A stretch of 64,000 nt of DNA from an uncultured Pseudomonadota bacterium (lineage in GTDB: Bacteria > Pseudomonadota > Alphaproteobacteria > RF32 > CAG-239), in NCBI GenBank assembly GCA_902763535.1, contig CACWSG010000009.1, positions 8,533 to 72,532 of the forward strand, written 5' to 3'. A program made the translations under genes and the position numbers. This document shows positions 4,994 through 60,800 of this stretch, piece after piece. Under the pieces are notes generated by a model that saw only the letters and a list, made by a program, of their open reading frames with translations, made no database searches and was not told the origin of the DNA. Position 1 is the first letter of the stretch, and every line of letters starts with the position of its first letter.

Positions 4994-5016
4994 ATAGCTT
5001 TTTTATAAATTAAGAT

Positions 5017-8680: not shown

Positions 8681-8750
8681 TCTAAATTCTGACACATTTA
8701 AAAAATATGTCAATACCGAAATGCCAACTTTTTGGGTTTTGTTATTTAAA

Positions 8751-9269: not shown

Positions 9270-9431
9270 TGTTGTTCTCCTATACAATTAACCACCCAAC
9301 AGATAAGCACAATAAAACATTGTTCAATGCTTGAATTTTAGTTTTTAATAATTACCACAGCTTGCGATTATGAGTTGATTTAGCATTTATTTCGATTTAT
9401 CATAGCACCTGACGATTATATATGGAGAAGT

Positions 9432-10070: not shown

Positions 10071-10081
10071 GGAGCAGATTT

Positions 10082-10795: not shown

Positions 10796-10800
10796 ATTAA

Positions 10801-11928
<1,128 letters not shown>

Positions 11929-15775: not shown

Positions 15776-15779
15776 TATC

Positions 15780-16415: not shown

Positions 16416-16568
16416 TTTAACTCCATGCATACTTTCTCTAAAAAACGATTATAAAACATTATAAAAAAATTAAAATATATTTTTTTATTAATTCACTATT
16501 TGCTTTTTAACATAACTTATATTAAAATCGCGTTAATTTTATACGATACAATAAAGAAAGATAATATA

Positions 16569-17024
16569 ATGACTATCGCATTTACTTTTATTCTCATCGG
16601 TTTAGCGGCAGTTGTGTTTCCCTTGCGGCGCAATCGGTTTTATTTGCTCAATGCGGCTCTGGTTATCGGATTGTCATATATTGCCGAACATTATTGGTTT
16701 AGAATAAGTGCTGCCAATCTTTTATCCGTTAAAACCATAATGTTGTTTGTGGTGTTTCATGTGATATGTATCAATTTTACGACTTTTATTGCTTATGGAG
16801 TTGATAAAAGAGCCGCCGTCAATCATCAATGGCGCATACCGGAAAATGATTTGCATATGTTGGAGTTTTTGGGCGGTTGGATAGGTGCTTTCATTGCTCA
16901 GAGATTTTTTCATCACAAAACTTCCAAAAAAAGTTTTCAAAATATTTATTTTCTCATGATAGTTATGGAGATTGCCGTTTTGTGGTTTTTATATAACTAT
17001 TTGGGATTAAGTCGATTTTTTTAA
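16569..17024 (+). CDS. DUF1294 membrane protein
   Basis: YGVDKRAA..QWRIPE..LH...GGWIGA..AQRFFHHKTSK. Confidence 0.9.
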   Translation: MTIAFTFILIGLAAVVFPLRRNRFYLLNAALVIGLSYIAEHYWFRISAANLLSVKTIMLFVVFHVICINFTTFIAYGVDKRAAVNHQWRIPENDLHMLEFLGGWIGAFIAQRFFHHKTSKKSFQNIYFLMIVMEIAVLWFLYNYLGLSRFF

Positions 17025-17083
17025 CAATTCTTTAGCTTTGCCGATTTATATTTCAGGCAAACAACAAAATAAGGACATCGGAT

Positions 17084-18403
17084 ATGCAGAGTATCAGTAC
17101 TGATAAGTTATGTGAAATATTAGGTTACAAAGGAAATGTGCAATCAGGGCAAATCAGCCACATTACCACGGATTCTCGCCAAGTAACTGCGGGAGATTTG
17201 TTTATTGCTTTGCGCGGCGAAAAATTTGACGGACACAATTTTGTGGCACAAGTCTTGGATAATGGAGCTCATTTGGCCATCGTTGATCACTTAATTGACA
17301 AAGTTCCTGCCGATAAACAGATTGTGGTTGAAAACACCCTGCAAGCTTATGGCAAAATCGGAGCTTATAATCGTTCGCATTTTAAGGGGACGGTTATCGG
17401 CCTCACCGGTTCATCCGGCAAAACCACCACCAAAGAAGAGCTCAAATCAGCACTTTCTCAATATGGTAAAGTTTATGCCACTCAAGGCAATTTTAACAAT
17501 GGTGTCGGCGTGCCGGCAACTTTGTGCAACTTAGATATGACGGCTGATTTTGCCGTTATCGAAATGGGAATGAGCGCCAAAGGTGAAATTGAAGAACTGA
17601 CCGGTTATACCAAGCCGGATATTGCCATAATCACCAATGTTTATCCCATGCATATAGAATTTTTTGAGAATTTTGCCGGCATCGCCGAGGCCAAGGCCGA
17701 AATTTTTAAGGGCTTAAAAAAAGGCGGTGCGGCTGTTATTAACGAGGACACCAATTTTGCTGATATTTTGGAACAACGCGCTGTTGAAAACGGGGCAATT
17801 GTCTATAAGTTTGGCAAAAATCACCACTCATCAGCCGAACTTCATCTTCAAGATGAAGGTGAACATAATTTCTACAACGCATGGTGTGTCTTAAAAGTTA
17901 TCGAAGTTTTGGGTTTGGATGAGAAAAAGGCGGTTACTGCTTTGAATAATTTTACGGCTCTTGCCGGTCGTGGTGCCAAACATCAACTGAAATTGGCAAA
18001 CGGCAGCTATACTCTTATTGATGACAGCTATTCCGGTCAGCCCGAAGCTATGAAATTAGCAATAGCCAATTTGAACAAAATGCCTTGTTCGGGACGCAAA
18101 ATCGCCGTATTGGGCAAAATGGCTGAGCTTGGCGATTCGTCTTTGGCACGCCACATTGAAATCGGTCAGGCTCTGGCAGGTTCCGATATTGATATTGTTA
18201 TTGGAGTTTGTCCTGAAATGCGCGATATGTTGGCTCAGCTTCCCGCCTCAAAAGAACAACATTATTTTGAGAACAACCATGGTTTGGATGAATTTTTGCT
18301 AAATAAATGCTTGCAAAATGGCGATATTGTTCTTATAAAAGGAGCCAGATATTCATCTCAGATGTATAAAACAGCCGAAAGTCTGATTGAAAAGGGAAAA
18401 TAA
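17084..18403 (+). CDS. murF: UDP-MurNAc-tripeptide--D-Ala-D-Ala ligase
   Basis: TDSR, GEKFDGH, TGSSGKTTTKE, EMGM, IDDSY, LGKMAELG. Confidence 0.95.
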   Translation: MQSISTDKLCEILGYKGNVQSGQISHITTDSRQVTAGDLFIALRGEKFDGHNFVAQVLDNGAHLAIVDHLIDKVPADKQIVVENTLQAYGKIGAYNRSHFKGTVIGLTGSSGKTTTKEELKSALSQYGKVYATQGNFNNGVGVPATLCNLDMTADFAVIEMGMSAKGEIEELTGYTKPDIAIITNVYPMHIEFFENFAGIAEAKAEIFKGLKKGGAAVINEDTNFADILEQRAVENGAIVYKFGKNHHSSAELHLQDEGEHNFYNAWCVLKVIEVLGLDEKKAVTALNNFTALAGRGAKHQLKLANGSYTLIDDSYSGQPEAMKLAIANLNKMPCSGRKIAVLGKMAELGDSSLARHIEIGQALAGSDIDIVIGVCPEMRDMLAQLPASKEQHYFENNHGLDEFLLNKCLQNGDIVLIKGARYSSQMYKTAESLIEKGK

Positions 18404-18406
18404 AAA

Positions 18407-18880
18407 ATGAAATGTCCGTTTTGCGGCAGTGCTGACACTCAAGTTAAAGATTCGCGCAATACCGATGATGATACAGCGGTGCGCCGCCGTCGAGAGTGTC
18501 CGGAGTGCGGGCAGAGGTTTACCACTTTTGAACACGTTCAGTTGCGTGATTTGATGGTGGTAAAAAAGAACGGCGAGCGAGTAATGTTTGATCGCGACAA
18601 ATTGGCTAAGTCAATTTATATTGCCGTACGCAAGCGTCCCATCAGTTCGGAACGAGTTGAAAAAATTGTTAATTCAATCCAGCGCCGTTTGGAAAGCACA
18701 GGAGAAATTGAATTTACATCAACTCAAATCGGCGAAATGGTTATGGAATCTTTGGCCACACTTGACAGAGTTGCGTATATTCGGTTTGCTTCCGTTTATA
18801 AGGACTTCCGTGAAGCTAAAGATTTTGAAAAATTTTTGGCCGAGTTAGAACAAATGGCCAAGCCGAAAGGAGAAGATTAA
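18407..18880 (+). CDS. nrdR: Transcriptional repressor NrdR
   Basis: [26 protein letters not shown] cone, [10 protein letters not shown]. Confidence 0.98.
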
Positions 18881-18882
18881 TC

Positions 18883-19374
18883 ATGGCAAAATTTATTTCC
18901 GAAAAAATAAAAAAGAAATCATCGGCGCGTTTGGCCGCTGTACAAGCTACCTATATGATTGAATATGGTCAGCTTCCGGTTGATATTGTGATTAAAGATT
19001 TTGTTAATGGTGAAATCGGCCGCTATGCCATAGAAGAAGAAAGTGATGGCTTCGAAATTATGGAGCAGGCGGTCGAAATTGAGGAAATGGACGCAGAATA
19101 TTTTACCGCTTTAGTTCGCGGTGTCCAAAAAAATAAAGAAGCTTTGGAACAATCTTTGAGCTCTTATCTCAAAGAAGGATGGCAGTTTGATCGTTTTGAC
19201 GGTACTTTGCGAGCTTTGCTGTTGTGTGCGGCTTATGAATTGGTTCACACAACCGATATTGATGCAACCGTTATAGTTAAAGAATATGTCGATTTAGCTT
19301 ATGCCTTTTTCTCCAAAGGTGAGCCTAAAATGGTCAATGCCTTGTTGGATAGTATTGCAAAATCTGTTCGGTAG
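18883..19374 (+). CDS. nusB: Transcription antitermination factor NusB
   Basis: SSARLAAVQATY, EYVDLAYAF, MVNALLD. Confidence 0.93.
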   Translation: MAKFISEKIKKKSSARLAAVQATYMIEYGQLPVDIVIKDFVNGEIGRYAIEEESDGFEIMEQAVEIEEMDAEYFTALVRGVQKNKEALEQSLSSYLKEGWQFDRFDGTLRALLLCAAYELVHTTDIDATVIVKEYVDLAYAFFSKGEPKMVNALLDSIAKSVR

Positions 19375-19380
19375 GAAGTT

Positions 19381-19893
19381 ATGACCAAGTTGAAACTTTA
19401 TGAATATCCTCATCCTATTTTGAAAAAGAAAGCTCTCAAAGTTGAAAGTTTTGACGCTTCTTTGCGCAAACTTCTCGATGATATGTTGGAAACAATGTAT
19501 GCATACAATGGTTGTGGTTTGGCTGCACCGCAGGTAGGAATTTCGCAGCGCATAGTTGTCATTGACATTGCTCATGAAGATGAAGAACCTGCACCGTTGT
19601 ATATGGTCAATCCGGAAATAATTTGGCGTTCTGACGAGCAAAAAATTTGTGAAGAAGGTTGTTTGTCGGTTCCCGGACAACGTGCCGAAGTTGAGCGTCC
19701 GGCCTCAGTCAAAGTAAAATACATAGATTATAACGGCAAACCTCAGGAATTATTGGCTGATGAATTTTTAGCCGTAGCAGTTCAGCATGAATTGGATCAC
19801 CTTGACGGCATCTTATACATTGATCATATCAGCCGCCTTAAACGCCAAATGTTGCTGAAAAAACTCGAAAAGCAACGCAAAGAACAGGATTGA
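19381..19893 (+). CDS. def: Peptide deformylase
   Basis: GLAAPQVG, EGCLS, QHELDHLDG. Confidence 0.98.
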   Translation: MTKLKLYEYPHPILKKKALKVESFDASLRKLLDDMLETMYAYNGCGLAAPQVGISQRIVVIDIAHEDEEPAPLYMVNPEIIWRSDEQKICEEGCLSVPGQRAEVERPASVKVKYIDYNGKPQELLADEFLAVAVQHELDHLDGILYIDHISRLKRQMLLKKLEKQRKEQD

Positions 19894-19976
19894 TGGTTTA
19901 GTATATTTTATGTCGTTAAATAATAATTAAATCTTATATTATACAATCGCCGAAGTTGTTGGTTGAGGTGAGTAGA

Positions 19977-20702
19977 ATGAGCGCTCTTAAAAAATTACCC
20001 TTATTAAATATCTTAAAAAAGTCATTGGCTTATTGTGTAAAAAATTGGCAGCTTTCTGCGACATTCAGCTTGATGTTTTATATTATCGGAGCCCTAGCCG
20101 TTTGGAGCTGGCAGAGCTGGATGTTTTTGCCGATTATGATTGTTTTGTATGTCATTTGGGGTGTTTTCTTTCGGGTTTATTTCAATCGTCATCCCTATTT
20201 CAACCTGAAGCCTTTGTTCAATTCACTAATGCCGTCAACCAAAATTGTTTTGTTGACCGTAGTGATTGCCAGCCTTTTGGTATTGTTGCCTTTGGTGCCG
20301 CTGTTCATCAATATTTCACCGGAGTTTAATCAAAATTATGCTCAATTTTTGCAAGGTGATATTGAGCATAACGGTATGTTGATTTTGGCAGCCAATATAG
20401 TATTTTTGCTAATTTCACCAATTATTGCCTATCGTCCGTTTTTGGCTTGGATTTCGTCATTAATCGGTCGCTCCGGTTCATTGCGTCAAGCTTGGGAAAA
20501 AACTCGCCATAATTATTTTGAATTTTTGGTGATTTCTATTTGGACAGATTGTATGTTGTCGATTGCGCGGTGGGCTATTATCGAATTGGGTGGCAACGAC
20601 TATATGACAATGGTTATTGTCGCACCGGTTATGGTTTATTTTAATGTTGTATCAGCCCAAGCTTATGAATTTTTCTTCCTTGATAAACAAGAAGAAGATT
20701 AG
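19977..20702 (+). CDS. Hypothetical polytopic membrane protein
   Basis: About 6 hydrophobic segments; SD GAGGTG. Confidence 0.75.
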   Translation: MSALKKLPLLNILKKSLAYCVKNWQLSATFSLMFYIIGALAVWSWQSWMFLPIMIVLYVIWGVFFRVYFNRHPYFNLKPLFNSLMPSTKIVLLTVVIASLLVLLPLVPLFINISPEFNQNYAQFLQGDIEHNGMLILAANIVFLLISPIIAYRPFLAWISSLIGRSGSLRQAWEKTRHNYFEFLVISIWTDCMLSIARWAIIELGGNDYMTMVIVAPVMVYFNVVSAQAYEFFFLDKQEED

Positions 20703-49376: not shown

Positions 49377-50489
49377 TTATTTTCCACCAGTTTTATTTAT
49401 ATTGACTTTTATTTTGGCATTCGGTGCTATCTTATCCACCTTATCAACCACCAAATATTCATTGCCTTCAAACTTGTTGCTGACGGCATAAGAATTATCA
49501 ATAATTCCTTCCACCTGCAGTTTAATTTGTTTTAAGTGATTATCTTTGATAACATAGGCCCAAATACCATCATCTTTTATTTGCGCATAGTTTTGCCTTA
49601 TAAGAGAAGCATTTTTCAATTTTTTGATAATAAAAACATCGACATAAGAATTGGCCAAAAGTTTTTTCTCAGGATTGGCAAAATCAGCATACAGACTTAT
49701 CGAATTAGTTGATTTGTTGACTTGATTGTCACTATATTGAAAATGTCCCGATTGTTCATACAATTGTCCGTCTGACAAACGCAACATAATGCTTTCTTTG
49801 CCCAAATTATCTCTATCCAGCTGCATAAAATCTTTATCCGGCATGGCAAAAACCACCCTTATCGGATCAAATTGCACAATGCTGAACAGTTTAGAATTCG
49901 GGGTTATATAGTTACCTTTAGTCAAATCAATATTGCCGACCACACCGGCAATCGGTGCTTGGACAATGGTATAATCATAAGCGATTTTGGCTTTTTGTTC
50001 TAAGGCTTTTGCTTGTTCCAATGCCGCCTGTGATGCCAAATATGATGCTTTGGCACTGTCAAGTTCCGAGGCAGAAACTGCTTGACTGCCGGCTTTTTTC
50101 AAACGTTTGTAATAGCTTGCGGCATTATTGTAATCAGCTTGTGCCTTAATAGTTGCCGCTTTGGCAGATTCCCATTCGGCTTTGTATTCTCTTTGATCAA
50201 TCAGCACTAAATTATCGCCGACTTTGACCTCATCACCGCCTTCAACCATCACATCATCAATATATCCGGCAACATTTGCCGCCATATCTGCACTTTGGAT
50301 AGGGGTTACATAACCGACATATTGTTTTTCGATTTTAACATCTTGATGAGGAATGGCGATGGCATTTATGCTCTGCGTTTGAGCAATTTCCGGCAAAGCG
50401 GAGTCAGCCCTTATGCTGTTGAACAATATATAATATACTATTATTACCGCAGCGGCAGCAAAGTAACGATATCTGAATAAATTATTCAT
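49377..50489 (-). CDS. RND efflux periplasmic adaptor (AcrA family)
   Basis: VAGYI...[13 protein letters not shown], hairpin, [10 protein letters not shown]. Confidence 0.92.
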
Positions 50490-50682
50490 CTTATTTAACC
50501 TCAAAAATACTTGCTCATTTGGCATATAAATAACCTCTTGCCGTTTTTATCCAACCTATACCAAATGTTCTATTGGCGAAATTTGTAAGTAATTAGGTGT
50601 AAAATTGTTAAAAATCAATAAGATAATAAGAGGTAATATTTTACCGTTAAATAATTTATTGAAAAAACTTCAAAAAAATATG

Positions 50683-50710
50683 TTGACAAATAAAAATAAT
50701 TCTCTATAAC
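50683..50710 (+). promoter_or_regulatory. Sigma70 promoter of rplM-rpsI
   Basis: TTGACA-N16-TATAAC. Confidence 0.55.
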
Positions 50711-50752
50711 TACAACCGAGCATTAATTTATAACATTAGAGAGAGATAAATA

Positions 50753-51217
50753 ATGAACACTTATGCAACCAAACCCTCAGACATTGAGAGAAAATGGTAT
50801 GTAGTAGATGCCGAAGGTGTTGTATTGGGTCGTCTTTCTGCCGAAATCGCCAAGATTTTGCGCGGCAAGCATAAACCGAACTTTGTTCCCAATATTGACT
50901 GCGGCGACTATGTAGTAGTTATCAATGCTGACAAAGTAAAATTGACCGGCAACAAATTGTCGGCTAAAAAATATTTCCGTCACACCGGTTGGGCCGGCGG
51001 TATCAAAGAGACTACCGCTGAAAAATTGCTCAATGGTCGTTTTCCGGAAAGAGTTATCATTAAAGCTGTTGAGCGCATGATTTCCCGCAACCCGATGGGT
51101 CGTCAACAGATGAGCAAATTAAAAGTATATGCCGGATCAAATCATCCGCATACTGCTCAAAATCCTGTTGCTTTGGATATTGCCGCTCAAAACCCCAAGA
51201 ATAAGAGGAGCAACTAA
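50753..51217 (+). CDS. rplM: 50S ribosomal protein L13
   Basis: [28 protein letters not shown]. Confidence 0.99.
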
Positions 51218-51219
51218 TA

Positions 51220-51708
51220 ATGGCTGAGAAATTAGAATCTTTAAAAGACCTTAAAAAGGCTGCCAAAACTGTTGAAGCTTCATCAGAAGAGACAACTGTT
51301 CGCAAAGCTAAAAAAGACAAACAAGGTCGTTCTTATGCTACCGGTCGTCGCAAGGATGCCGTTGCTCGTGTTTGGATTAAAGCTGGTAAAGGCAACATCA
51401 CCATTAATGACAAGTCAATTGATCAGTACTTTGCTCGTCCGGTTTTGAAAATGATTATCAATCAGCCTTTTGAGGTTGCTAATCGTGCCGGTGAGTTTGA
51501 TGTAATCTGCACAGTAAAAGGCGGTGGTTTGTCCGGTCAAGCCGGTGCCATCAAACACGGTATTTCACGCGCTTTGAATGCTTATGAGCCGGAATTGCGT
51601 GATTGCTTGAAAAAGGCAGGTTTCTTGACTCGTGATGATCGTGCTGTTGAACGTAAGAAATATGGTAAAGCTAAAGCTCGCCGTTCTTACCAGTTCTCCA
51701 AACGTTAA
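51220..51708 (+). CDS. rpsI: 30S ribosomal protein S9
   Basis: [31 protein letters not shown]. Confidence 0.99.
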
Positions 51709-51737
51709 TCTTCACCAAAAGAAAATCGTTTTATATC

Positions 51738-51771
51738 AATGGGTTGTGGATTTTCACAGCCCATTTTTTTT
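51738..51771 (+). terminator. rpsI terminator (copy 1 of a duplicated element)
   Basis: aatgggttgtg-gatttt-cacagcccattttttt. Confidence 0.85.
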
Positions 51772-52106
51772 GATGAACATAATATTCACATAACCCTTGA
51801 CAATTCTAATTAACATTTCCATCTTAATATAATTTGAATTATTATAATCTAAATTATATTAATAAGAAGTGGGGACGAAATTTATCGGCAGAACTAAAAC
51901 ACTCAAAAATATTGGTGCTGGTTAAGGGACTGAACAGAGAATTATAAATTGTTTATAAAATAATTCTCAAAAAAAAGATATTGACACTATAAAATTTTGC
52001 TTTTATTGTAGAACATAATAAGAACAAAACAATGATGAGATTAAAGGTGTAAATCAAAATATATTAATTAATTTACTCAAAAAACCGTTAACTTAAGGAG
52101 CTATCT

Positions 52107-53648
52107 ATGAAAAAAATAAAATTAAATATCAAAAGAAAGCACGTTTATACGGGATTAATTGTTTTTGTTTTATGTATAAGTGTAGGAGGTTTTCTTAATG
52201 TTTTTTTGAAGAAAAGTACAAAATCCTACGAGTATAATAATATTGATTGTAAAACGAATGAATATGGTATTTCTGTTTGTAAAGATAAAAATAATGGTCT
52301 TATAAACGGGATAACAAAGCTTTATTATGAAAGTGGAAAAGTAGAGCTTGAAGCAAATTGGAAAGACGGAAAACATCATGGTCCATTAAAACGCTATTCT
52401 GAAAATGGAATTTTGTTGGAGGAAATACCATTTGTTGATGGAAAACGTGAGGGAGTTGGAAAATCATATTATAACGACGGGCAATTGCAAAGAGAAACAA
52501 CATATAAAAATGATAAAATAAAGGGGCAGACCAAGGAATATTATAGAGATGGTATTTTAAAGAGTATAGAAAATTTTGAGGATGTGCTATTAAACGGAGC
52601 AGCTGAATATTATAATCGAGATGGAATTTTGATTATTTCAACAAATTATATTGATGCTCAACAAGATGGAGTTAGAAAGGAATATTATGATGATGGAAAG
52701 TTAAAATCTGTTGCAACATGGAAAAAAGGTAAACTTGATGGTGAAGGAAAATCATATTATCGTAATGGAATACTTGAAACAGACTATCTTTTTAAGGATG
52801 GCAAAGAAAATGGAATATGTAAGCAGTATTATGATAACGGAACATTAAAATCTGAAGTATCTTGGAAAAATGGCAAGCAAGATGGCATATATCAAGAGTT
52901 TGACCAGTACGGAAATATTGCGATAAAAGGAATTTTTGTTGATGGAATGAAAGAGGGTATAGCTAAATTTTATGATCAGCACGGCATATTGAGAAGGGAA
53001 ATTCCCTATCACAAAGATAAAGCAGAGGGAATATCTAAAGATTATGCAGAAGACGGCTCGTTATTAGGCGAAACAACATGGAAAAATAATCTCCAAAATG
53101 GTATTTTGAAAGTATACTATAGGAGTGGTTCTTTATATGGTGAAGCCGAGTATAAAGATGATAAGCAAGAAGGAAAAAGTAAAACCTATTATGAAAACGG
53201 ACAGTTGAAATCAGATGAAAATTGGAAGGGTGGAAAGCCGGATGGAAAGTTCGTATATTATTACGAAAATGGAAATATTGAAAGAGAAATCATATTCAAT
53301 AATGGAAAAGAAAACGGAAAATTTAAAGAATATTATGAAAAAGGTCAATTGAAGACAGAAAAAAATATGATTAATGGTCAAGAAGACGGTGAAGTTATTT
53401 TATATTATAAAAACGGAAAAAAAGAAGCAGCTCTGTTTTATAAAAATGGAAAAGAGAATGGGATAAGTAAAAGATATTATAAAAATGGTAATATAAAAAG
53501 TGAATATTCATATCATGATGGTAAAAAAGAAGGGATTGGAAAAATATATTATGAAAATGGAAAACTACAATCAGAAGAAGAATGGAAAGAAGGTAAACGT
53601 ACCAAAGTGTTAAAATCTTTTGATAAAAAAGGAAAGGCTACAAAATAA
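52107..53648 (+). CDS. MORN-variant repeat protein (YwqK-like), N-terminally membrane-anchored
   Basis: About 19 tandem 24-aa repeats of type YYENG-x-L-x6-KNGKxxG; TM near the N-terminus; TTGACA-N17-TATTGT promoter at 51981. Confidence 0.9.
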   Translation: MKKIKLNIKRKHVYTGLIVFVLCISVGGFLNVFLKKSTKSYEYNNIDCKTNEYGISVCKDKNNGLINGITKLYYESGKVELEANWKDGKHHGPLKRYSENGILLEEIPFVDGKREGVGKSYYNDGQLQRETTYKNDKIKGQTKEYYRDGILKSIENFEDVLLNGAAEYYNRDGILIISTNYIDAQQDGVRKEYYDDGKLKSVATWKKGKLDGEGKSYYRNGILETDYLFKDGKENGICKQYYDNGTLKSEVSWKNGKQDGIYQEFDQYGNIAIKGIFVDGMKEGIAKFYDQHGILRREIPYHKDKAEGISKDYAEDGSLLGETTWKNNLQNGILKVYYRSGSLYGEAEYKDDKQEGKSKTYYENGQLKSDENWKGGKPDGKFVYYYENGNIEREIIFNNGKENGKFKEYYEKGQLKTEKNMINGQEDGEVILYYKNGKKEAALFYKNGKENGISKRYYKNGNIKSEYSYHDGKKEGIGKIYYENGKLQSEEEWKEGKRTKVLKSFDKKGKATK

Positions 53649-53675
53649 TACACAATTTATCATTTATTTTGTGGT

Positions 53676-53705
53676 GGGGTGTGGATTTTCACAGCCCATT
53701 TTTTT
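53676..53705 (+). terminator. Terminator (copy 2; 26 bp identical to the rpsI terminator)
   Basis: tgtggattttcacagcccattttttt at 53680-53705 equals 51745-51770. Confidence 0.8.
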
Positions 53706-53782
53706 GTTTCACATAAACTCTTGCAATTTGAGTTTTTGTTACCTAACTAAAGAATATAATCTTATAGTTTTAAGGAATAATA

Positions 53783-54250
53783 ATGACCGATAAAGAAACT
53801 CTTCCCTTAAAATCAGCACGTAAATTAAATATGCTGATTTTGCATAATGAAGCCTTAGCAAAAGATAAAAGCCTGCAAGAAAAAATAATTGCTTGGGGCT
53901 TAGATATGCTGGAAGAAGCTCGTGCCGATTGGAGTGATATGCGAGCAACAATGTTGGATTCTGTTATAAAGATTCATCAAAGAACGAATGCTCGTAAGGG
54001 AGGCATAGAAAGAGATAAGAAATATATACAATTTAGAGAAGAATTTGCAAAAATACAAAAAGAATATTTTATAAGGGCATATCAAAATAATCAAAAATTA
54101 ACAGCAAATAGCTTTGTTGAATGGTTTATAACGAATAAAGCTGAAAAAATAAAGATTCCGTACGTTCCTCAAAACCAAAAGAATAAATTAAGACAACTTG
54201 CACAAGCTAATACCAAAGAATTTAAAAAGCTTTTGCTTGGCAAAAGTTAA
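53783..54250 (+). CDS. Hypothetical basic helical protein
   Basis: 155 aa; SD AAGGA; NARKGG motif. Confidence 0.7.
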   Translation: MTDKETLPLKSARKLNMLILHNEALAKDKSLQEKIIAWGLDMLEEARADWSDMRATMLDSVIKIHQRTNARKGGIERDKKYIQFREEFAKIQKEYFIRAYQNNQKLTANSFVEWFITNKAEKIKIPYVPQNQKNKLRQLAQANTKEFKKLLLGKS

Positions 54251-54338
54251 ATTTTAGCAAGCTATAGGGCATAGACAAGATATTCTCTGAAACGCTAAAG
54301 TTAAAATCTAATATTAACTTAACAAAAGGAGCGAAAAT

Positions 54339-54728
54339 ATGCCAAAATATGGCGATAATACAGCAAAAGCTCTTGATAATTATCTCAAGGGTTATAAGCT
54401 ACCAACAGGAACAACGCGAAGTGGTTTAGTTGCGCCGATTAAAGATTTGCAACGCAATTATAATACAATGAAAACAATGAATTTAAATCCGAGCGACCAT
54501 TTTTTTCATTGCAAAGCAAATTATGAAGCAGCTTCTCGCGGTCGTTATGGTGCTGCTGTTGCGACCGGAGCTGGATATCTTCGTGAGTTGGCTGATACAT
54601 TAATTAAAAGAGATAGTTTATCGGCTGCACGAAGTGATTTAAGAGCTAACGCGAGAGGTCGTGCAGGTGCTGCAGCAGGTAAAAGTTTGAAAGCAACTTG
54701 CCCAACACATCACACCAAGTATAAGTAA
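54339..54728 (+). CDS. Stand-alone serum amyloid A-like protein
   Basis: DLQRNYNTMKTMNLNPSDHFFHCKANYEAASRG..G...RE...D..AN..GR.G aligns with the vertebrate SAA core; SD AAGGAG. Confidence 0.8.
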   Translation: MPKYGDNTAKALDNYLKGYKLPTGTTRSGLVAPIKDLQRNYNTMKTMNLNPSDHFFHCKANYEAASRGRYGAAVATGAGYLRELADTLIKRDSLSAARSDLRANARGRAGAAAGKSLKATCPTHHTKYK

Positions 54729-54748
54729 TTAATTGGAGAACAAAATAA

Positions 54749-55132
54749 ATGAACAGGCAAAGTCTATTATTAAGATTGATAACAACCATCAAATTAATAA
54801 TTTTGTTTTTGATGATTTCATGGTTTGGAATGGATTGGAGTATTGTTCAGCCTGCAGCATCCACTATATTGTATACCTATGAACTGGTAATGTTTGCGAG
54901 CGTAATATTTTTCTTTGCAACATTCTTTTCCAAAACAAGAAAAGTTGCTTATGTCTTATTTATAATCAGTTTTATTGCTTATCTTGTGATGTATAATTTT
55001 TCTAACGAAATAATTATTCAACATAAAATTGATGCTTGTTTAGATCAAGGACTGGTTTGGGATGGTGATGAGCTTAAATGCCGAGAAGATTGTTGGCGTT
55101 GGAGTGTTGAAAAAGGTTGTGAAAAAAAGTAG
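54749..55132 (+). CDS. Small 3-TM protein with C-terminal 4-Cys domain (candidate immunity protein)
   Basis: SD GGAG; three hydrophobic helices; DACLDQG.VWD....CREDC.......GC. Confidence 0.7.
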   Translation: MNRQSLLLRLITTIKLIILFLMISWFGMDWSIVQPAASTILYTYELVMFASVIFFFATFFSKTRKVAYVLFIISFIAYLVMYNFSNEIIIQHKIDACLDQGLVWDGDELKCREDCWRWSVEKGCEKK

Positions 55133-55142
55133 GATATGCAAA

Positions 55143-55418
55143 ATGCAAAAATTATGGACAGCAGCAAAACAAATAGTTATATTTTTTACCTTGTGGGTAT
55201 TTGTTATATGGTTTAGTGCTGAGATAATTTTTGCATTGTTTAAGAATGACCAAAGTGTTTCAGAAGATGATTTGCAAGGTGCTGCCTGTATCTCTTTTAT
55301 TTTAGTTTATGCCATTATTAAGCCCATAGCTTCTCGCTATAAATTAAAATTATGGATTAAGTATATTCTATATTTTGTAATTTATACGGCTTTATTTCTT
55401 TTAATTTCTTTTATGTGA
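55143..55418 (+). CDS. Small 3-TM hypothetical protein
   Basis: ATG 10 bp after the previous stop; three hydrophobic segments. Confidence 0.65.
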   Translation: MQKLWTAAKQIVIFFTLWVFVIWFSAEIIFALFKNDQSVSEDDLQGAACISFILVYAIIKPIASRYKLKLWIKYILYFVIYTALFLLISFM

Positions 55419-55455
55419 TAGAATTTCTTGTATGATAAAACTTTTTTAAGCAAAT

Positions 55456-55488
55456 AAAAAGAAAAGGTTGCGATAATGCAACCTTTTC
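55456..55488. terminator. Intrinsic terminator
   Basis: gaaaaggttgc-gataat-gcaaccttttc. Confidence 0.8.
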
Positions 55489-55694
55489 TGATATTGGTGA
55501 GCTTTGGCGGGATAGAGCTCGCAAATGCTTTTAGCAATGCTCGCTCATCTCATCCTTTGCCGACTTTCACCGGCAAAGACTTCGATTCCGAACCAATGGC
55601 TTCTTCAGCTCTGTTGAAGCCACCAACAAAAAAACTCCCCGTGAAAGAGGAGTTTTCTCTACTGGTGATGCAAAGCTTGCAACTTGCAAGAAAA

Positions 55695-56465
55695 TTACTT
55701 GTTTTTTCCTTTTGCATATTCCGTCATTAGTGCTTTAGAAATTTTAGCTTGTTTTTGTGCAACATTTTTATGTTCCTCACGAACTTCTCCTGTTTTGATA
55801 TCTCCTGTCTTTCCTAGATGGGCTGTTTTTCTATTTTTTTTACTAAGCTTGTTTTTCAAAATTTCTGATTTTAATTGCAAATAGTCTACTCCTACTTGTT
55901 GCGGATTTGCTAACAGAGCTACAGTGTCTGCATAGCTAGAAGAAAGGAGTTCTATAATAGATTGTTTGGTATCATTATCTAACATATTTGCTTTATTCAA
56001 AACCTTAATTTTATCAACCATTTTTTCAGAGCTGAAGGATATTAATCCTTTTTCTAAATCTTGAAAATCAATCACATTATACGCAAATTTTCCTCCTGCC
56101 TTGATAACACTTTCAACATTTTGGGAAGAAAAACGACAATCTGACACAACTAAATCCAAAAAATTTAATTTTTCTTCACAATTATCTTCATAATTCCAAA
56201 ATTTTTGAGTGTCATTAACTCGAGCACCTTTTGATATATAAAAATCGACCTGTTCCGGAGATGAGGCAAAAATTACTTCTTCATTACTGAAATATTTTTC
56301 TGGAATCAATCCTTCTTTATCTAGATATTCTATTCCTTTTAATGTGCGGACTTCATTAGTTATAGATATCATATCATCATTTCCAAAATTCATCTTTTTA
56401 AATTCGTTATATTCCTCTTTATCTATCAACTTTGCGGCTTTTAAAATCATTTCTTTATCGCTCAT
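55695..56465 (-). CDS. Hypothetical protein with ankyrin-like hints and basic C-terminal tail
   Basis: 256 aa; SD GGGAG; VDFYISKGARVN and VESVIKAGG resemble ankyrin repeat ends. Confidence 0.7.
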   Translation of the reverse strand: MSDKEMILKAAKLIDKEEYNEFKKMNFGNDDMISITNEVRTLKGIEYLDKEGLIPEKYFSNEEVIFASSPEQVDFYISKGARVNDTQKFWNYEDNCEEKLNFLDLVVSDCRFSSQNVESVIKAGGKFAYNVIDFQDLEKGLISFSSEKMVDKIKVLNKANMLDNDTKQSIIELLSSSYADTVALLANPQQVGVDYLQLKSEILKNKLSKKNRKTAHLGKTGDIKTGEVREEHKNVAQKQAKISKALMTEYAKGKNK

Positions 56466-56523
56466 ATCTTTTCTCCCTGTTAAAAAGTTATTATCAATGT
56501 ATAGAATCTCTCTTTATATTTTC

Positions 56524-56555
56524 ATTATACCCCCCCCCCAGTAGACAAAAGTCAA
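56524..56555 (-). promoter_or_regulatory. Sigma70 promoter with G10 tract in the spacer
   Basis: Minus strand TTGACT-N20 (including G10 at 56530-56539)-TATAAT, about 60 bp upstream of ATG 56465. Confidence 0.7.
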
Positions 56556-56958
56556 GTATTTTCGTCAAAAAGATGAGTTTTAATTTTTACATTGTAACTC
56601 GTACGAAATTCGGTCATCAATATCAACTTTTTAATGTCCTTTATTTTTGAGCCTTTGGCGGTGGGAGAATCACTACACCACCGCAACGAGTTTAATTTTT
56701 GGGAAGTCGGCTGATGATGGACTTCCCTGTCATCATCAACCACGAAATCACTATAACACACCAACTCGTCAGCTGGCAAAATTAAAATGACTTCACGGGT
56801 ATTTATCGGGGAACGATTAAAGTTTGTAATTGCTGTAAAGTAGGGAATGTTAAAAGAATGAAAACAGGGGCTGGGACTGGAAAAAGTCGCTGTTTAAAAG
56901 TAGCACCTGTGTAGCACCAAAAAAAATAAGGGCTTTGAGAAAATCTCAAAACCCTTGA

Positions 56959-56983
56959 TTTTATTGGTGAGCCCGGCGGGATT
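56959..56983 (-). repeat. 25-bp direct repeat of the tRNA-Lys 3' end (att-like)
   Basis: ttttattggtgagcccggcgggatt is identical to 57120-57144. Confidence 0.9.
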
Positions 56984-57088
56984 ACTTCGTTCACTGCGGC
57001 AATCAGCTGATCGCTGACCGGTGCGCTGCCGCTCACCTTTGCCTTGTAGTCAAACCCACTTTTTCGTGGGTTCTTATCCCAACTTACT

Positions 57089-57127
57089 CAATAAAAAAAC
57101 CTTCCGCGAGGGAAGGTTTTTTTATTG
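57089..57127 (-). terminator. Terminator after tRNA-Lys
   Basis: Perfect 17-bp stem caataaaaaaaccttcc/ggaaggtttttttattg. Confidence 0.9.
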
Positions 57128-57201
57128 GTGAGCCCGGCGGGATTCGAACCCACGACCCTTTGATTAAAAGTCAAATGCTCTACCTACTGAGCTACGAGCC
57201 C
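57126..57201 (-). tRNA. tRNA-Lys(UUU)
   Basis: 76 nt; anticodon loop CTTTTAA, GTTCGAATC T loop, encoded CCA. Confidence 0.97.
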
Positions 57202-57342
57202 GAACTCAAAAACTAACAGCACATATAAAATATAAAAAAACGCAAGTCAATAAAAAAATAAAAAAATTTACAAATGTAAGAAATTTGTTAATAATTAGAT
57301 GATAATATAAGACAAGATTTTAGAAAAAATAGTGAGGTTGAT

Positions 57343-57666
57343 ATGGAAAACACTACTGGTAATGCTGTTGATAACGAAGGAAGCTATGAAATTTTGCAAA
57401 ATGCCAACGGCGAGATTTTGATTGTCATCAAACAGCGCCATGGCGGTCCAGAGAATCCGCGATTCGTTTATGATGGTGGTGATACTGCTTTGCTGTATCG
57501 TAGTCGCGAAAGTTCGGTTTTTTTGGGCGGAATCAATGAAGAAGCCCGCAATCCCATCAAAGTTGTGGATGAGGTTATTGTGGCTGAGATTGATGGTGAG
57601 GAGGTTGCCAGAGAATATGTGGTTCCGGTGCGGTTAGTGCGCGATCTTAAAGCTGTTTTGAATTAA
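57343..57666 (+). CDS. Hypothetical protein
   Basis: 107 aa; SD GAGG; followed by a hairpin. Confidence 0.75.
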   Translation: MENTTGNAVDNEGSYEILQNANGEILIVIKQRHGGPENPRFVYDGGDTALLYRSRESSVFLGGINEEARNPIKVVDEVIVAEIDGEEVAREYVVPVRLVRDLKAVLN

Positions 57667-57694
57667 CAGATATCTTAAATGGTTATTTTGATTG

Positions 57695-57729
57695 CAAAAT
57701 AAGAGCTTTAATCATAAGCTCTTATTTTG
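57695..57729 (+). terminator. Hairpin/terminator before the nuoL-like gene
   Basis: caaaataagagctt-taatcat-aagctcttattttg. Confidence 0.7.
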
Positions 57730-57766
57730 TATAAAACATAAAAGTCCGTTTGGGGATTGAATTAAC

Positions 57767-59377
57767 ATGATCATACATTTGTTTATTGGACTGATATTAA
57801 TTGCTGTCGCTTCGATGTTCATAACTCAAGGTAAGCGGCGAAAAATATGGTCTCTATTGCTGCTTGCTGCCTTAGGTTTGGTTTCTTGGCTGTTTATCTA
57901 CAACATCAGCATGGATGGCAACTCTAGTTTTATGTATCAATGGTTGCCGTATTCTAAGCTTCAGGCTGATTTTAGCATATCCTCTTCAGCCCGTATGCAT
58001 GGATTAGTAGCATCATTGGTTTGGTTGCTTGCCGGTGTGATAATCCTTAACATTATTGAAGTTAACGAAAGTTACTCGTTAAATATCAGTGTGCTGAATT
58101 TACTGTCTTTTGTGGCAATGATTTTGTTAATCTCGAGCCGCGATATGTTTCAACTCATGTTTGCATCAGCTTTGTTGTCGATTCTCTGTTTTTATATTCC
58201 CAGCGATGCATTCTCGAGACGAAAGCTGTTTATATACAGTTTCTTAGCTGAAATTTCTTGTTTTACAGCGCTGGCTGTTGTTTATGACACGCAGGGTTCT
58301 ATCAGTCTGTCGGCACTTAATGATTATGTTTCATCACCAATACATAAAGATTTTGTAGCGGCACTGCTTTTATTCTCTTTAGGCATAAAAAGTGGATTAT
58401 TTTTGTTAAACAACCATTACAGTTCTTTATTTTATGCTTCGATGAATCGCTTGAGCGGTATTTTTATTATGTCATTACCTTTTTCCGCATTGGTTATATT
58501 AGCAAAGCTATCGCCATTAATATCTTCTTCACATTTAATTCCTGTAATCACATACTGGCTGATTATATCGGTACTTGTCGCAGGATTAAAAGCTTTTGTT
58601 TATAGCGATTATTCCCGCAAAACAATCAATTTGTCGCAAATCGTGTATTGTGGTTTGTTTTATATTGTTTTTAAGGATAGCGCCAGACTCTACACAATTG
58701 TTCCGCAAAGCCTTATGATATTATTGTTGAGCCAGTGTCTTATTTATTACATAGGTTCTGTATGTCTTGGCGGAACAAAGAAAAATTGTGCAAAATATTG
58801 CGTCGTTTTAAGCGGAATCGGCGCTGTTACTTATCTGACAGCAGTTGTTGATGTTCCCATGTTGCTGAAATACACTTATCTGTTCATCATAGGAGTTATC
58901 GTTAAACAGCTTTTATTAGCTAAAAATGATAACACATCGGATAATGTTACTCCATCATTTCATATCATTTATTCTCTAGCCCTTATTGCAGTTTCAATAG
59001 CTACTGTTTATCTAAAGTTGGATTATGCTCAAAATTGGAACTGGAAAATTTTATTTCCTTTGATTTTGGCATTACTTGTGCCGGTAACTCTTTTAACTAA
59101 AATGGGTCAGTTGCCGTTATGGAACAAGGAAATAACCGAAAATATATATAATCACTTAATTGTGCTTCCGTTAAAATGGTTTGGGCGCATATTATGGTTG
59201 GCATTTGATTTTGTATTTATCGAAAGAGGTATAATAGCCACATCAGCTTCCGGAGAAGAGATTATGACTGAACATCTGCGTTTAATCCAAAGTCCGTCAT
59301 TTAAATCTTGGTTATTTTGGTTGTTCATCGGGATAGCCGGACTGGTCGTTTATGTAGGAGTTCACGCCTATGAATAG
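57767..59377 (+). CDS. Highly divergent NuoL-like antiporter-fold subunit
   Basis: YQWLP, SLGIKSG (TM7), C-terminal YNHLIVLP..FGRILW..FD...IE lateral-helix pattern; synteny with the M/N-like genes, birA and rnj. Confidence 0.7.
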   Translation: MIIHLFIGLILIAVASMFITQGKRRKIWSLLLLAALGLVSWLFIYNISMDGNSSFMYQWLPYSKLQADFSISSSARMHGLVASLVWLLAGVIILNIIEVNESYSLNISVLNLLSFVAMILLISSRDMFQLMFASALLSILCFYIPSDAFSRRKLFIYSFLAEISCFTALAVVYDTQGSISLSALNDYVSSPIHKDFVAALLLFSLGIKSGLFLLNNHYSSLFYASMNRLSGIFIMSLPFSALVILAKLSPLISSSHLIPVITYWLIISVLVAGLKAFVYSDYSRKTINLSQIVYCGLFYIVFKDSARLYTIVPQSLMILLLSQCLIYYIGSVCLGGTKKNCAKYCVVLSGIGAVTYLTAVVDVPMLLKYTYLFIIGVIVKQLLLAKNDNTSDNVTPSFHIIYSLALIAVSIATVYLKLDYAQNWNWKILFPLILALLVPVTLLTKMGQLPLWNKEITENIYNHLIVLPLKWFGRILWLAFDFVFIERGIIATSASGEEIMTEHLRLIQSPSFKSWLFWLFIGIAGLVVYVGVHAYE

Positions 59378-60800
59378 TCCTTTGATGATGTTATCACTGA
59401 TAGTTATAATTCCCTTTTTGGGAATGTTATTTGTTTTAACCGCTAAAGATGATGCCGAAAACAATCGCCGCAACAGCTCTGATGTTGCCGTCTTTTCAAT
59501 TTTAGCCAACATCATTATGATATGGCAGATATTTGCTTTTGTCAAAAAAGCCGGTACAAAACTGCACTTAATCGAAACCATCAGTTGGTTGAAACTTCCG
59601 GAAATAAATTTTGTTTTGGCGGCTGATAATATGTCATTATTGTTGATATTAGCTGTTCACATCATAATTTTGGCCGGAATAGTTTTTGTCAGAATGGAAG
59701 ATATTAAACAAAAGGCCATGATGGCACTGTCATTATTGTTTTTGAGCATGATTACCGGCTTGTTTATCAGCAATGATATTTTTTCATTCTTTATTTTCTT
59801 TGAAGGAATGTTACTGCCTTTGTATATGTTGATTGGCATGCATGGAGCTTTGAAGAAACAATCATTACTTAAAGGATTTTTTGTTTATAATTTTATCGGA
59901 TGCATCATATTTTTATTCGGCATTTTGTGGTTGTATAAAAGTTATGGTGCTTTCACTCCCGAACAATTCGCTCATTTAAGCTATAAAAAGAAATATGTGG
60001 TTATGATTTGGGCAATGTTCATGTCAGCTTTTATGTTTCGCATACCGATATGGCCGTTTCATTACTTTATTGCTACCATCAACACCAAAATACGCAATCC
60101 CTTGGTGTTTCTTGAGGTTTCTTTGTTGTCGCTCAGCGGTTTATACGGTTTATATCGCTTTTGGCCTAACTATATACCTTTAGAAATTTCACAACATTTT
60201 GTATGGATAAATGTCATAGGTATCTTAACCATGCTGTTTATCAGTCTTATCGGCTTTAGTAATTCTGATTCTCAATATCGTATATTTGCTTATTCAACCA
60301 TCTATTATATTATGTATTTGTTGGGCATATTCAGCCAAAACAAAGGTATTTATGCCAATTTGAACTACGCTTTATTCGGATTTTTATTGGTGCTTGGCGG
60401 CTTGGAAGTTGTCAGCTCTTATATCCGTCGTCAGGAACAGTTGTTCAGCAGTACATCACAAGGATTTTTATGCCGTGCTCACAGGCTGTCATTGGTTTAT
60501 TCGTTTTTGGTGTTTTCGGCGGTAGGTTTTCCGGTATCTTCAATGTTTACCAATAATTTTCTTATTTTATCCCAGCTGTTATCGGTGAATATTCACATGG
60601 GATCGGTATTGGTGTTGTCATGGATGTTGGTTTCTGTATCGCTTATTATAGAAATGTTAAGGCTTAAAACCGATGCTAAAGAATGTTTGTTTGGCAAGTC
60701 GGAAGATTTGCCCAAAAGCTATTTTATCTTTATGCTATTCATCATTTTCATGCTTCTTATGTCTTTTATCCATCCTTTATGGTTTGTGATAAATACCTAG
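59370..60800 (+). CDS. Divergent NuoM-like subunit
   Basis: FFIFFEGMLLPLYMLIG (TM5), RIPIWPFH (TM7), YGLYRF, AYS. Confidence 0.85.
   Translation: MNSPLMMLSLIVIIPFLGMLFVLTAKDDAENNRRNSSDVAVFSILANIIMIWQIFAFVKKAGTKLHLIETISWLKLPEINFVLAADNMSLLLILAVHIIILAGIVFVRMEDIKQKAMMALSLLFLSMITGLFISNDIFSFFIFFEGMLLPLYMLIGMHGALKKQSLLKGFFVYNFIGCIIFLFGILWLYKSYGAFTPEQFAHLSYKKKYVVMIWAMFMSAFMFRIPIWPFHYFIATINTKIRNPLVFLEVSLLSLSGLYGLYRFWPNYIPLEISQHFVWINVIGILTMLFISLIGFSNSDSQYRIFAYSTIYYIMYLLGIFSQNKGIYANLNYALFGFLLVLGGLEVVSSYIRRQEQLFSSTSQGFLCRAHRLSLVYSFLVFSAVGFPVSSMFTNNFLILSQLLSVNIHMGSVLVLSWMLVSVSLIIEMLRLKTDAKECLFGKSEDLPKSYFIFMLFIIFMLLMSFIHPLWFVINT

Follow-up and report, generated by a model that had tools for sequence, protein, structure and literature searches.

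Introduction

The primary biochemical function of serum amyloid A (SAA) has been debated for decades. The present work deals with a bacterial SAA-like gene and the gene that follows it, found at positions 54339-54728 and 54749-55132 of a stretch of 64,000 nucleotides (nt), hereafter the window, from an uncultured Pseudomonadota bacterium (Alphaproteobacteria; RF32; CAG-239; assembly GCA_902763535.1, contig CACWSG010000009.1, positions 8,533 to 72,532). Systems of this kind have already been predicted in print: the pair is probably a toxin-immunity cassette, belonging to the prok-SAA branch of the Lipocone proteins and placed in the variable toxin slot of an island at a tRNA-Lys gene.

The Lipocone superfamily was defined by Burroughs, Nicastro and Aravind (eLife 2025, PMC12419801); statements attributed here to that article refer to the portions of its text that were available. 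The active site proposed for these proteins is made of (i) a His in helix 2; (ii) a Glu in helix 3; and (iii) an Asp in helix 4, and the proposed substrates are phosphate-linked lipid head groups. Within the superfamily, prok-SAA is grouped with Min-Wnt in the soluble SAA-Wnt clade, whose members are distinguished by a fifth helix and a small-N-x-x-G-R motif. Toxin tips of the prok-SAA type, together with a membrane-anchored four-cysteine immunity domain, are already described in the same article: this third type of immunity domain has an alpha-helix plus four strands, bears four conserved cysteines, is coupled to prok-SAA and also accompanies Min-Wnt toxins. Leaderless Min-Wnt and prok-TelC proteins are proposed to act intracellularly in conflict, and Min-Wnt genes are found in tailed phages. 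As for animals, SAA is proposed to descend from bacterial toxins that cut lipid head groups, having been acquired from bacteria before the cnidarians diverged, and not the reverse. The prok-SAA proteins were predicted by computation in 2025, and the available text reports no assay of any of them; for bacterial SAA it cites Zamocky and Ferianc 2023.

Biochemical data come from other Lipocone proteins. TelC, which PMC12419801 cites as the sole experimentally tested Lipocone toxin, is a lipid II-cleaving protein without activity in the cytoplasm. Furthermore, YfiM and VanZ/Llp1 are described, in a preprint that was likewise available in part, as Ca2+-dependent lipid-linked oligosaccharide pyrophosphatases whose activity requires the equivalent Lys, His, Glu and Asp (10.64898/2026.09.16.752124).

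The SAA-Like Gene

The pair, its ribosome-binding site and the segment that is exchanged between genomes are the following:

54326-54331, plus strand: AAGGAG ribosome-binding site, 7 nt before the ATG of the SAA-like gene (read from the sequence).
54339-54728, plus strand: SAA-like (prok-SAA Lipocone) gene of 129 amino acids (aa), predicted toxin (Pfam, PDB sequences, structural model, conservation, and ratio of non-synonymous to synonymous substitution rates, dN/dS).
54749-55132, plus strand: gene of the 127-aa predicted immunity protein (AlphaFold, 29-sequence alignment, linkage).
54347-55131, plus strand: swapped segment with the SAA and immunity genes (blastn of the window against locus L060; open reading frame content of loci L059, L060, L063 and L064).

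The 129-aa protein is a genuine serum amyloid A homologue. Its open reading frame (ORF) has no in-frame start farther upstream under the ORF rule applied. Residues 35-114 match the Pfam SAA model (PF00277) with E=3.2e-17 and 63.2 bits, the curated cut-off being 30.8; the match covers profile positions 12-91 of 102, so that positions 1-11 of the profile are unmatched and the first 34 residues of the protein lie outside it. Against the sequences of the PDB, phmmer returned eight distinct SAA sequences with E-values from 1.2e-7 (mouse SAA3) to 6.2e-4, human SAA1 standing at 4.4e-6, and the next match came at E=0.16. NCBIfam has no family for the gene. The original prediction, made from the letters of the window, had recognised the SAA likeness by eye; both searches bear it out, and the approximately 19 ungapped identities to human SAA1 that it reported are the 19 obtained by hand count over a 48-residue stretch. 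Its observation that both proteins end in KY does not hold for the bacterial one, whose C-terminus is KYK.

The structural comparison agrees with the sequence searches. The AlphaFold model, built on a 37-sequence alignment, has a predicted local distance difference test score (pLDDT) of 71.9 and a predicted template-modelling score (pTM) of 0.69, with helices at residues 6-16, 31-46, 54-66, 69-90 and 94-113 plus short C-terminal helices. It is, at moderate confidence, a four-helix cone with a short extra C-terminal helix. In a Foldseek search of the PDB, ranks 1-7 were all SAA3 or SAA1 chains (probability 1.00; target-normalised TM-score 0.66-0.70; 29-34% identity over about 90-98 aligned columns; E-values from 2.8e-3 to 1.7e-2), and all the remaining rows had E>5.

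The alignment of 37 sequences joins the window protein to 25 homologues from databases and to 11 proteins translated from fetched loci; it spans four subfamilies, with identity down to 26%. His57, Glu83, Asp100, Gly107, Asn40, Asn61, Ala64, Gly68 and Cys121 are invariant in all 37, and Cys58 and Asp86 are kept in at least 90% of them. His57, Glu83 and Asp100, in helices 2, 3 and 4, are the positions that PMC12419801 names as the Lipocone active site, and the small-N-x-x-G-R motif defined there is present at residues 103-108 (Ala103-Asn104-Ala-Arg-Gly107-Arg108), where a reading of the alignment blocks finds Asn104 replaced by Asp in five close homologues. The His, Glu, Asp and Gly-Arg positions of the bacterial protein also align in mouse SAA3 and human SAA1. 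Since the three putative catalytic residues are invariant, an enzyme acting on lipid head groups is probably a better reading than the "membrane-active" toxin first envisaged. The conserved Cys58 and Cys121 suggest a disulfide and, therefore, action in an oxidising compartment.

Both genes of the pair are under purifying selection, with dN/dS of 0.07-0.21 for the SAA gene and 0.27-0.28 for its partner. When the same genome pairs are compared, the partner (0.27-0.28) evolves faster than the toxin (0.07-0.14).

As had been noted at the outset, the protein has neither a signal peptide nor a carrier domain: on reading the sequence, its N-terminus is hydrophilic, and the leaderless state is constant in its SAA subfamily. 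A word-based search for longer fused relatives found none among 2222 candidates, a negative that is weak evidence; fused SAA forms did emerge from whole-genome searches, as described below.

The Partner Gene

The partner gene starts 20 nt after the SAA ORF, in the same orientation. Its AlphaFold model is of high confidence (pLDDT 93.2) and contains three transmembrane (TM) helices (residues 3-33, 38-57 and 61-84), followed by a small module made of a helix (86-99) and four strands (103-105, 110-112, 117-119 and 123-125). The module holds four cysteines, Cys97, Cys111, Cys115 and Cys124, spaced C-x13-C-x3-C-x8-C. In 29 partner sequences, C97, D105, C111, C115, W118, G123 and C124 are invariant, while the number of hydrophobic or TM segments ahead of the module varies from one to four. 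If the basic N-terminus lies inside the cell, topology rules would place the cysteine module outside the cytoplasm in both the 1-TM and the 3-TM forms.

This protein fits the third immunity type of PMC12419801, as described in the available text, in its helix plus four strands, its four invariant cysteines, its membrane anchor and its coupling to prok-SAA. The original prediction had ranked the locus as a candidate for an undescribed system; given that prok-SAA tips with four-cysteine immunity proteins are already in that article, this claim is not supported.

Other searches with the partner were less informative. No Pfam, NCBIfam or PADLOC family was found for the 127-aa protein, and a search with its tail (residues 83-127) returned five near-identical proteins only, which says nothing on the range of the family. 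In the ESM Atlas, the matches were exclusively clusters of "hypothetical protein", the best of them, at 0.92, being possibly its own cluster. A prediction of a complex between the SAA protein (alignment A1) and partner residues 83-127 (alignment A2), run without controls, gave scores of 0.00, 0.36 and 0.00, which speak neither in favour of binding nor against it.

A holin-like reading of the 3-TM partner was considered and rejected, because the TM number varies while the external cysteine module stays invariant.

Linkage and Distribution

The association between the two genes was examined in 37 loci: six from named genomes, 30 from a search of the order (taken from its 141 positive genomes) and one on contig C8 of the window's own genome. 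In these loci, phmmer identified 39 SAA ORFs. A co-oriented ORF with the four-cysteine module lies within -47 to +157 nt of 35 of them, commonly with a 14-nt overlap. Such a cysteine-tailed TM gene is downstream in the great majority of cases, not in all, and the linkage extends across divergent SAA subfamilies. Among the exceptions, one (L011) is cut by the contig end; another (L012) is followed by a different 3-TM protein; and two (L009 and L023) are of a divergent SAA subfamily, where the gene that follows encodes another small TM protein, with three cysteines.

Four-cysteine genes or fragments also occur without an adjacent SAA gene (L004 2365-2748; L014 1-384 and 772-924; L025 703-1086; L027 975-1148), and these look like orphan immunity genes. 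One of them comes after a Tlde1 toxin and its TM gene. The window's own genome has a single copy of the cysteine-module gene.

The SAA domain is frequent in the order. The Pfam model matches 141 of its 283 genomes (132 above the cut-off) in 18 of 24 genera, with 0 to 5 matches per genome, and none of 14 control genomes. When 1.84 billion representatives were searched with the window protein, matches at E<=0.001 were obtained in 476 clusters. Among the best 150 of these 476, the SAA domain is C-terminal in 146, in agreement with the view, advanced beforehand, that bacterial SAA domains are mainly C-terminal tips. In the same set, 97 representatives are longer than 165 aa, several of them with YD/RHS-like repeats recognised by eye, and 53 are short; under a crude hydropathy cut-off, a hydrophobic N-terminus was found in none of the 49 short representatives that start with Met. 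One 2067-aa representative (P0065) consists of long tandem repeats, and the SAA query matches it in 16 places, or in 25 according to local phmmer.

With regard to habitat, one related metagenome-assembled genome (Alphaproteobacteria) comes from roe-deer colon, and contigs of bovine-gut RNA libraries cover the SAA gene, as detailed below.

Replacement of the Cassette in a Sister Genome

Two further genes delimit the slot in which the pair lies:

53783-54250, plus strand: 155-aa conserved upstream gene, function unassigned (compared in L004, L060, L063 and L064).
55143-55418, plus strand: gene of a 91-aa small membrane protein (context in other genomes, swap boundaries).

In the sister genome G090, whose rplM-rpsI genes are 97% identical to those of the window, 247 nt with a 79-aa gene occupy the place of the window segment 54347-55131 (blastn). 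On the left, positions 1-1242 of the G090 locus L060 correspond at 94% to window positions 53099-54346, from inside a gene of MORN repeats (see below) through the 155-aa gene; the edge at 54346 falls eight bases into the SAA ORF, and the promoter region, the ribosome-binding site and the start codon are common to both genomes. On the right, blastn identity to G090 is 94.5% from 55132 through the second membrane gene and 92% from 56983 through tRNA-Lys and beyond. Since the flanks match up to 54346 and again from 55132, the SAA gene and its partner replace the 247-nt segment, that is to say, a cassette has been exchanged at a conserved locus between strains.

The 155-aa gene precedes the toxin slot whichever cassette occupies it: SAA in L004, and a 79-83-aa gene in L060, L063 and L064. 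No Pfam match above the cut-off and no NCBIfam or PADLOC family was found for it. The 79-83-aa ORF found in the SAA slot at L060 1235-1474 (G090), and also in L059, L063 and L064, belongs to no family; a second kind of small toxin, paired with a membrane immunity protein of its own, is a possible reading.

The exchange also clarifies the position of the 91-aa gene. It is co-oriented with the partner gene and, counting from the ATG at 55143, starts 10 nt after it; both short gaps had been given correctly in the original prediction, which assigned two 3-TM genes to a single toxin-immunity cassette. The three TM helices of the first are supported by its model, and those of the second by a crude hydropathy scan, which detects three hydrophobic segments in a 97%-identical copy. 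The toxin-immunity reading, with the first of them as predicted immunity gene, is well supported by the 35/39 linkage, the fusion in L012 (described in the next section) and the swap; the second belongs elsewhere. Next to SAA, the 91-aa gene is missing from L005-L008 and survives in degenerate form in L003 and L004; it is found in 24 of the 283 genomes of the order, and it comes after the 79-83-aa ORF in G090, G084, G074 and G087. Because it follows that gene elsewhere, it is best read here not as part of the SAA pair, but as a retained orphan partner of another cassette, possibly the orphan immunity gene of the 79-83-aa one. NCBIfam has nothing for this gene, nor for the 155-, 256- or 107-aa ORFs.

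A Common N-Terminal Domain and Its Toxin Context

The window's own genome (G000) carries a second, divergent SAA gene on contig C8 (240 aa; Pfam E=5.9e-14), for which, as for the window protein, PHROGs has nothing. The C8 paralogue bears an N-terminal domain of about 110 aa without a Pfam family and without a usable ESM Atlas hit. In G000, the domain heads five ORFs and one fragment, located as follows:

C8 (L009 12830-16463), minus strand: ORFs with the N-terminal domain.
C1:127091-127981: the same domain.
C12:14304-14813: the same domain.

Behind this common N-terminal part the C-termini differ. In G000, they are (i) divergent SAA; (ii) a weak SLT domain; (iii) a Gly/Ala-rich form of 296-304 aa; and (iv) a form of 169 aa. 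In other genomes, the domain precedes Tlde1 (E=1.6e-8, above the cut-off) and Glyco_hydro_108 (E=3e-23); all the SLT matches are weak and below the cut-off. In L012, it is fused to the window protein's own SAA subfamily, including the N-terminal 34 residues. The domain seems to act as the carrier of a polymorphic toxin family, not described so far, whose target would be the cell envelope.

The C8 copies lie at the end of a complete prophage (L009 ~14359-20000 and L010 ~956-11879) with small and large terminase, portal, major head, tail and tail-fibre proteins, a tail-fibre chaperone, an endolysin and spanin-like small ORFs. Toxins with the N-terminal domain, accompanied by small TM partners, are cargo of this prophage directly after its lysis genes.

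With these data, the window pair can be set against the general traits of polymorphic toxins. The SAA domain is also found as a variable C-terminal tip of proteins with a common N-terminal part, and a predicted immunity gene lies immediately downstream, with putative orphan copies elsewhere. The window protein itself has no N-terminal trafficking, secretion or processing module and, in consequence, the pair is described as a carrier-less toxin cassette and not as a classical polymorphic toxin.

The tRNA-Lys Island

The cassette lies in a stretch (52-57 kb) of 30-37% G+C, compared with about 38-42% across most of the window, that ends at a tRNA-Lys gene. Its remaining features are:

52107-53648, plus strand: gene of a 513-aa protein in which a hydrophobic N-terminal segment is joined to 16 MORN_2 repeats (30% G+C).
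55460-55489, no strand assigned: G+C-rich hairpin between the plus-strand cassette and the convergent 256-aa ORF, terminator-like, scored on the minus strand.
55695-56465, minus strand: 256-aa ORF, absent from G090, between two tRNA-3'-like repeats.
56959-56983: exact 25-nt duplicate of the tRNA-Lys 3' end (equal to 57120-57144), an att-like direct repeat (repeat families D6 and D7).
57126-57201, minus strand: tRNA-Lys(UUU), with its 3' end toward the island (ARAGORN; Rfam tRNA, 73.9 bits).

In positions 50000-60000, Rfam detected the tRNA-Lys only. A degenerate third copy of the tRNA-Lys 3' repeat lies at 55480-55502, and a 1.5-kb difference from G090 (55441-56982) ends at the 25-nt duplicate, blastn placing the boundary at 56983. 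In L005, L006 and L008, the SAA pair is located 0.6-2 kb downstream of a tRNA-Glu gene. Repeats of tRNA 3' ends and a tRNA-adjacent placement are marks of small integrative islands. No integrase was found in the window island, and the whole suggests repeated integration and decay of small elements at tRNA-Lys. The unusual sequence at 55490-55530 is more readily explained as the degenerate remnant of a tRNA 3' end.

A terminator had been predicted after the cassette. The hairpin at 55460-55489 is indeed there, although it was scored on the minus strand, downstream of the 256-aa ORF. For that ORF, no Pfam match above the cut-off and no NCBIfam or PADLOC family was found. For seven island proteins, PADLOC matched no model at E up to 0.01.

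At the other end of the island, a 31-nt hairpin repeat, with copies 97% identical, is present at 51740-51770 (after rpsI) and at 53675-53705 (after the MORN gene), with a copy in the G090 locus. Since the repeat stands on both sides of it, the 513-aa MORN gene appears to have been inserted between two copies of a terminator-like element. Annotation as antitoxin or immunity protein is frequent among proteins with repeats of the MORN_2 type. The 513-aa protein also partly matches the LIC20035 adhesin model (146 bits; cut-off 250 bits).

In 16 regions of the genus, there is essentially no island DNA beyond the first ~130 nt downstream of rplM-rpsI. The G090 island is located 26 kb further along the same contig and, therefore, it is rearrangement, and not absence, that lies behind the loss of synteny downstream of these genes. 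In G086, which belongs to another species of the genus, two SAA toxins with the N-terminal domain (contig C24, L054 1092-2926) lie directly downstream of rplM-rpsI. As the window island begins where those toxins sit, the position may be a recurrent insertion site.

Finally, the SAA gene is covered, with >=99% identity, by contigs that come from four bovine-gut RNA libraries in two studies, and one contig (54609-54911) spans the SAA gene into its partner; in both cases DNA carry-over is possible. The latter contig fits co-transcription of SAA and partner, which is a weak hint. Over 53600-55900, these contigs give no strand, ends or level, and their absence over the 155-aa gene, over 55140-55270 and beyond 55450 is not evidence of silence.

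Proposed Mode of Action and Alternative Explanations

Taken together, the genuine SAA homology, the conserved residues, the linked partner with its cysteine module and the exchange of both genes as a unit argue that the pair is probably a toxin-immunity cassette. The SAA domain would be an enzyme working outside the cytoplasm of a rival bacterium, where it would cut phosphate-linked head groups off envelope lipids; undecaprenyl-pyrophosphate-linked peptidoglycan precursors would be its likeliest substrate. Such an activity is suggested by the cleavage of lipid II by TelC, by the activity of YfiM and VanZ, and by the murein-degrading tips found on the same carrier. The producer, in turn, would be protected because the disulfide-stabilised periplasmic module of the partner would bind the toxin on the outer side of the inner membrane and block it there. 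As to release, the leaderless toxin might leave through lysis of the cell or of a prophage, as colicins and pesticin do; this is a guess, prompted solely by the C8 paralogue, which sits directly behind a prophage lysis cassette.

Several points weigh against this explanation. Four of the 39 SAA ORFs have no four-cysteine neighbour. The structural model of the SAA protein is moderate (pLDDT 71.9, falling to 50-55 near residues 71-90) and the Foldseek E-values are modest (2.8e-3 to 1.7e-2). The partner is assigned tentatively to the four-cysteine immunity family of PMC12419801, by its match to the description given in the available text, and the case for the window SAA protein as a toxin is drawn from its context. 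Furthermore, the window protein lacks a signal peptide, a trafficking domain and a known secretion partner: its genome, which is 99.3% complete, has no TssC (sheath of the type VI secretion system) or phage sheath gene, and its one VirB4 homologue is distant, lies on another contig and has no link to the cassette.

A self-directed envelope enzyme is an improbable alternative. According to it, the SAA protein would be a housekeeping or stress lipid-carrier phosphoesterase like YfiM and VanZ, and the four-cysteine protein would anchor or regulate it. YfiM and VanZ, with conserved His, Glu and Asp, do perform housekeeping tasks (preprint 10.64898/2026.09.16.752124), and the pair is under purifying selection and may be transcribed, with the reservation on DNA carry-over made above. 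Nevertheless, a housekeeping role accords poorly with a patchy distribution (141 of 283 genomes, 0 to 5 copies), with a variable location beside tRNA genes, with the existence of orphan partner genes and with an SAA domain borne on the same N-terminal domain as peptidoglycan hydrolase tips. It accords no better with G090, in which an unrelated cassette exactly replaces the pair in spite of the 97% identity of rplM-rpsI. Moreover, a soluble, signal-less protein could not meet the periplasmic module of its partner in its own cell.

An intracellular conflict effector has a similarly small chance of being the right explanation. Here, the SAA protein would act on unflipped lipid carriers, in abortive infection, superinfection exclusion or a lysis-type system, and the membrane protein would be a gate or a sensor. 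PMC12419801 proposes this kind of action for Min-Wnt and prok-TelC domains that have no leader, a trait that the window protein has in common with them; its cassette lies in a tRNA-linked island, and the C8 paralogue is found in a complete prophage directly after endolysin and spanin-like genes. The conserved part of the partner, however, is the cysteine module outside the membrane, while its TM helices vary from one to four; the conserved cysteine pair of the toxin suggests an oxidising compartment; and SAA shares its N-terminal carrier with murein hydrolases, which need the periplasm. In addition, no PADLOC defence model matches the seven island proteins, and TelC, according to PMC12419801, does not work in the cytoplasm.

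Host mimicry was the other option of the original prediction and can be set aside as highly improbable. The bacterium would, in that case, imitate SAA in order to bind retinol or lipoproteins, to form amyloid or to send signals to the epithelium of the gut. The organism is gut-associated, and its protein is about 29-34% identical to mouse SAA3 and human SAA1 over ~90-98 aligned columns, but the protein has no signal peptide, leaves profile positions 1-11 unmatched and is encoded beside an immunity-like gene and among peptidoglycan-targeting toxins. Moreover, its domain is widely and deeply diversified in bacteria, with 476 representative clusters, mostly toxin tips, the published view being that animals took SAA from bacteria (PMC12419801).

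The toxin-immunity cassette hence remains the preferred explanation, and a bolder version of it can be formulated, although it is doubtful: the leaderless SAA cassettes and the toxins with the N-terminal domain would serve gut Alphaproteobacteria with small genomes as an arsenal of bacteriocins, released by lysis in the manner of colicins, in which SAA would be a phosphoesterase of lipid II or undecaprenyl-pyrophosphate-sugars that crosses by itself the outer membrane of the rival. If this were true, no system would be simpler than this pair of genes for demonstrating that SAA is at root an antibacterial enzyme, since the catalytic residues align in SAA3 and SAA1. In any case, the locus is a minimal test object, with a soluble protein of 129 aa, intact proposed catalytic residues and a partner of 127 aa with a small disulfide-rich module, predicted to act as inhibitor. 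In ecological terms, cassettes are swapped and SAA is present in half of the 283 genomes of one gut lineage; this swapping, together with the high gene density, makes a role in gut competition approachable.

Comparison With Known Systems

Colicin M and pesticin are leaderless proteins with a periplasmic target in the synthesis or structure of peptidoglycan and with an adjacent gene for a periplasm-facing immunity protein. The window cassette can be likened to them by its logic only, as there is no sequence relationship. Both bacteriocins carry receptor-binding and translocation domains, for which the 129-aa protein has no room and, unlike these lysis-released proteins, the window cassette is not adjoined by a release gene.

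Animal SAA proteins are secreted by means of a signal peptide. Vertebrate SAA (SAA1, SAA3 and Met-SAA) is the best match of the bacterial protein in sequence and fold. Nevertheless, the two differ in that vertebrate SAA (i) has the first 11 profile positions, which the bacterial protein lacks; (ii) is without the cysteine pair, the position of Cys58 being Ala in the SAA1 and SAA3 chains; and (iii) has no immunity partner. Having neither a signal peptide nor a complete N-terminal profile segment, the window protein is not an SAA of the vertebrate type.

The TelC-TipC pair of Streptococcus intermedius resembles the cassette in that a soluble Lipocone toxin acts outside the cytoplasm and an extracytoplasmic immunity protein is encoded by the adjacent gene. 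On the contrary, TelC belongs to another Lipocone clade and leaves its Gram-positive host by type VII export through an LXG domain, and the fold of TipC is different; the distinction between the two systems is based on the descriptions in the parts of the literature available.

The closest relatives are, therefore, the prok-SAA proteins themselves. In what is described of that family, the RHS, PAAR, WXG, VirD4-binding, MuF and metallopeptidase modules, the signal peptide and the "broken-hairpin" tail are traits that the window protein lacks, and leaderless standalone forms are named in the text of PMC12419801 for other families; the leaderless combination of prok-SAA and immunity gene may figure in its source tables. 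The likeness lies in the domain and in its company: the window protein exceeds the Pfam SAA cut-off, folds as a soluble bundle of helices to which a short C-terminal one is added, keeps His, Glu, Asp and the small-N-x-x-G-R motif and, like its described relatives with their probable use as toxins, is followed by a membrane-anchored four-cysteine partner. The pair is, in sum, an unusually minimal member of this family, and its value is to offer a practical way into the hypothesis that SAA is an enzyme.

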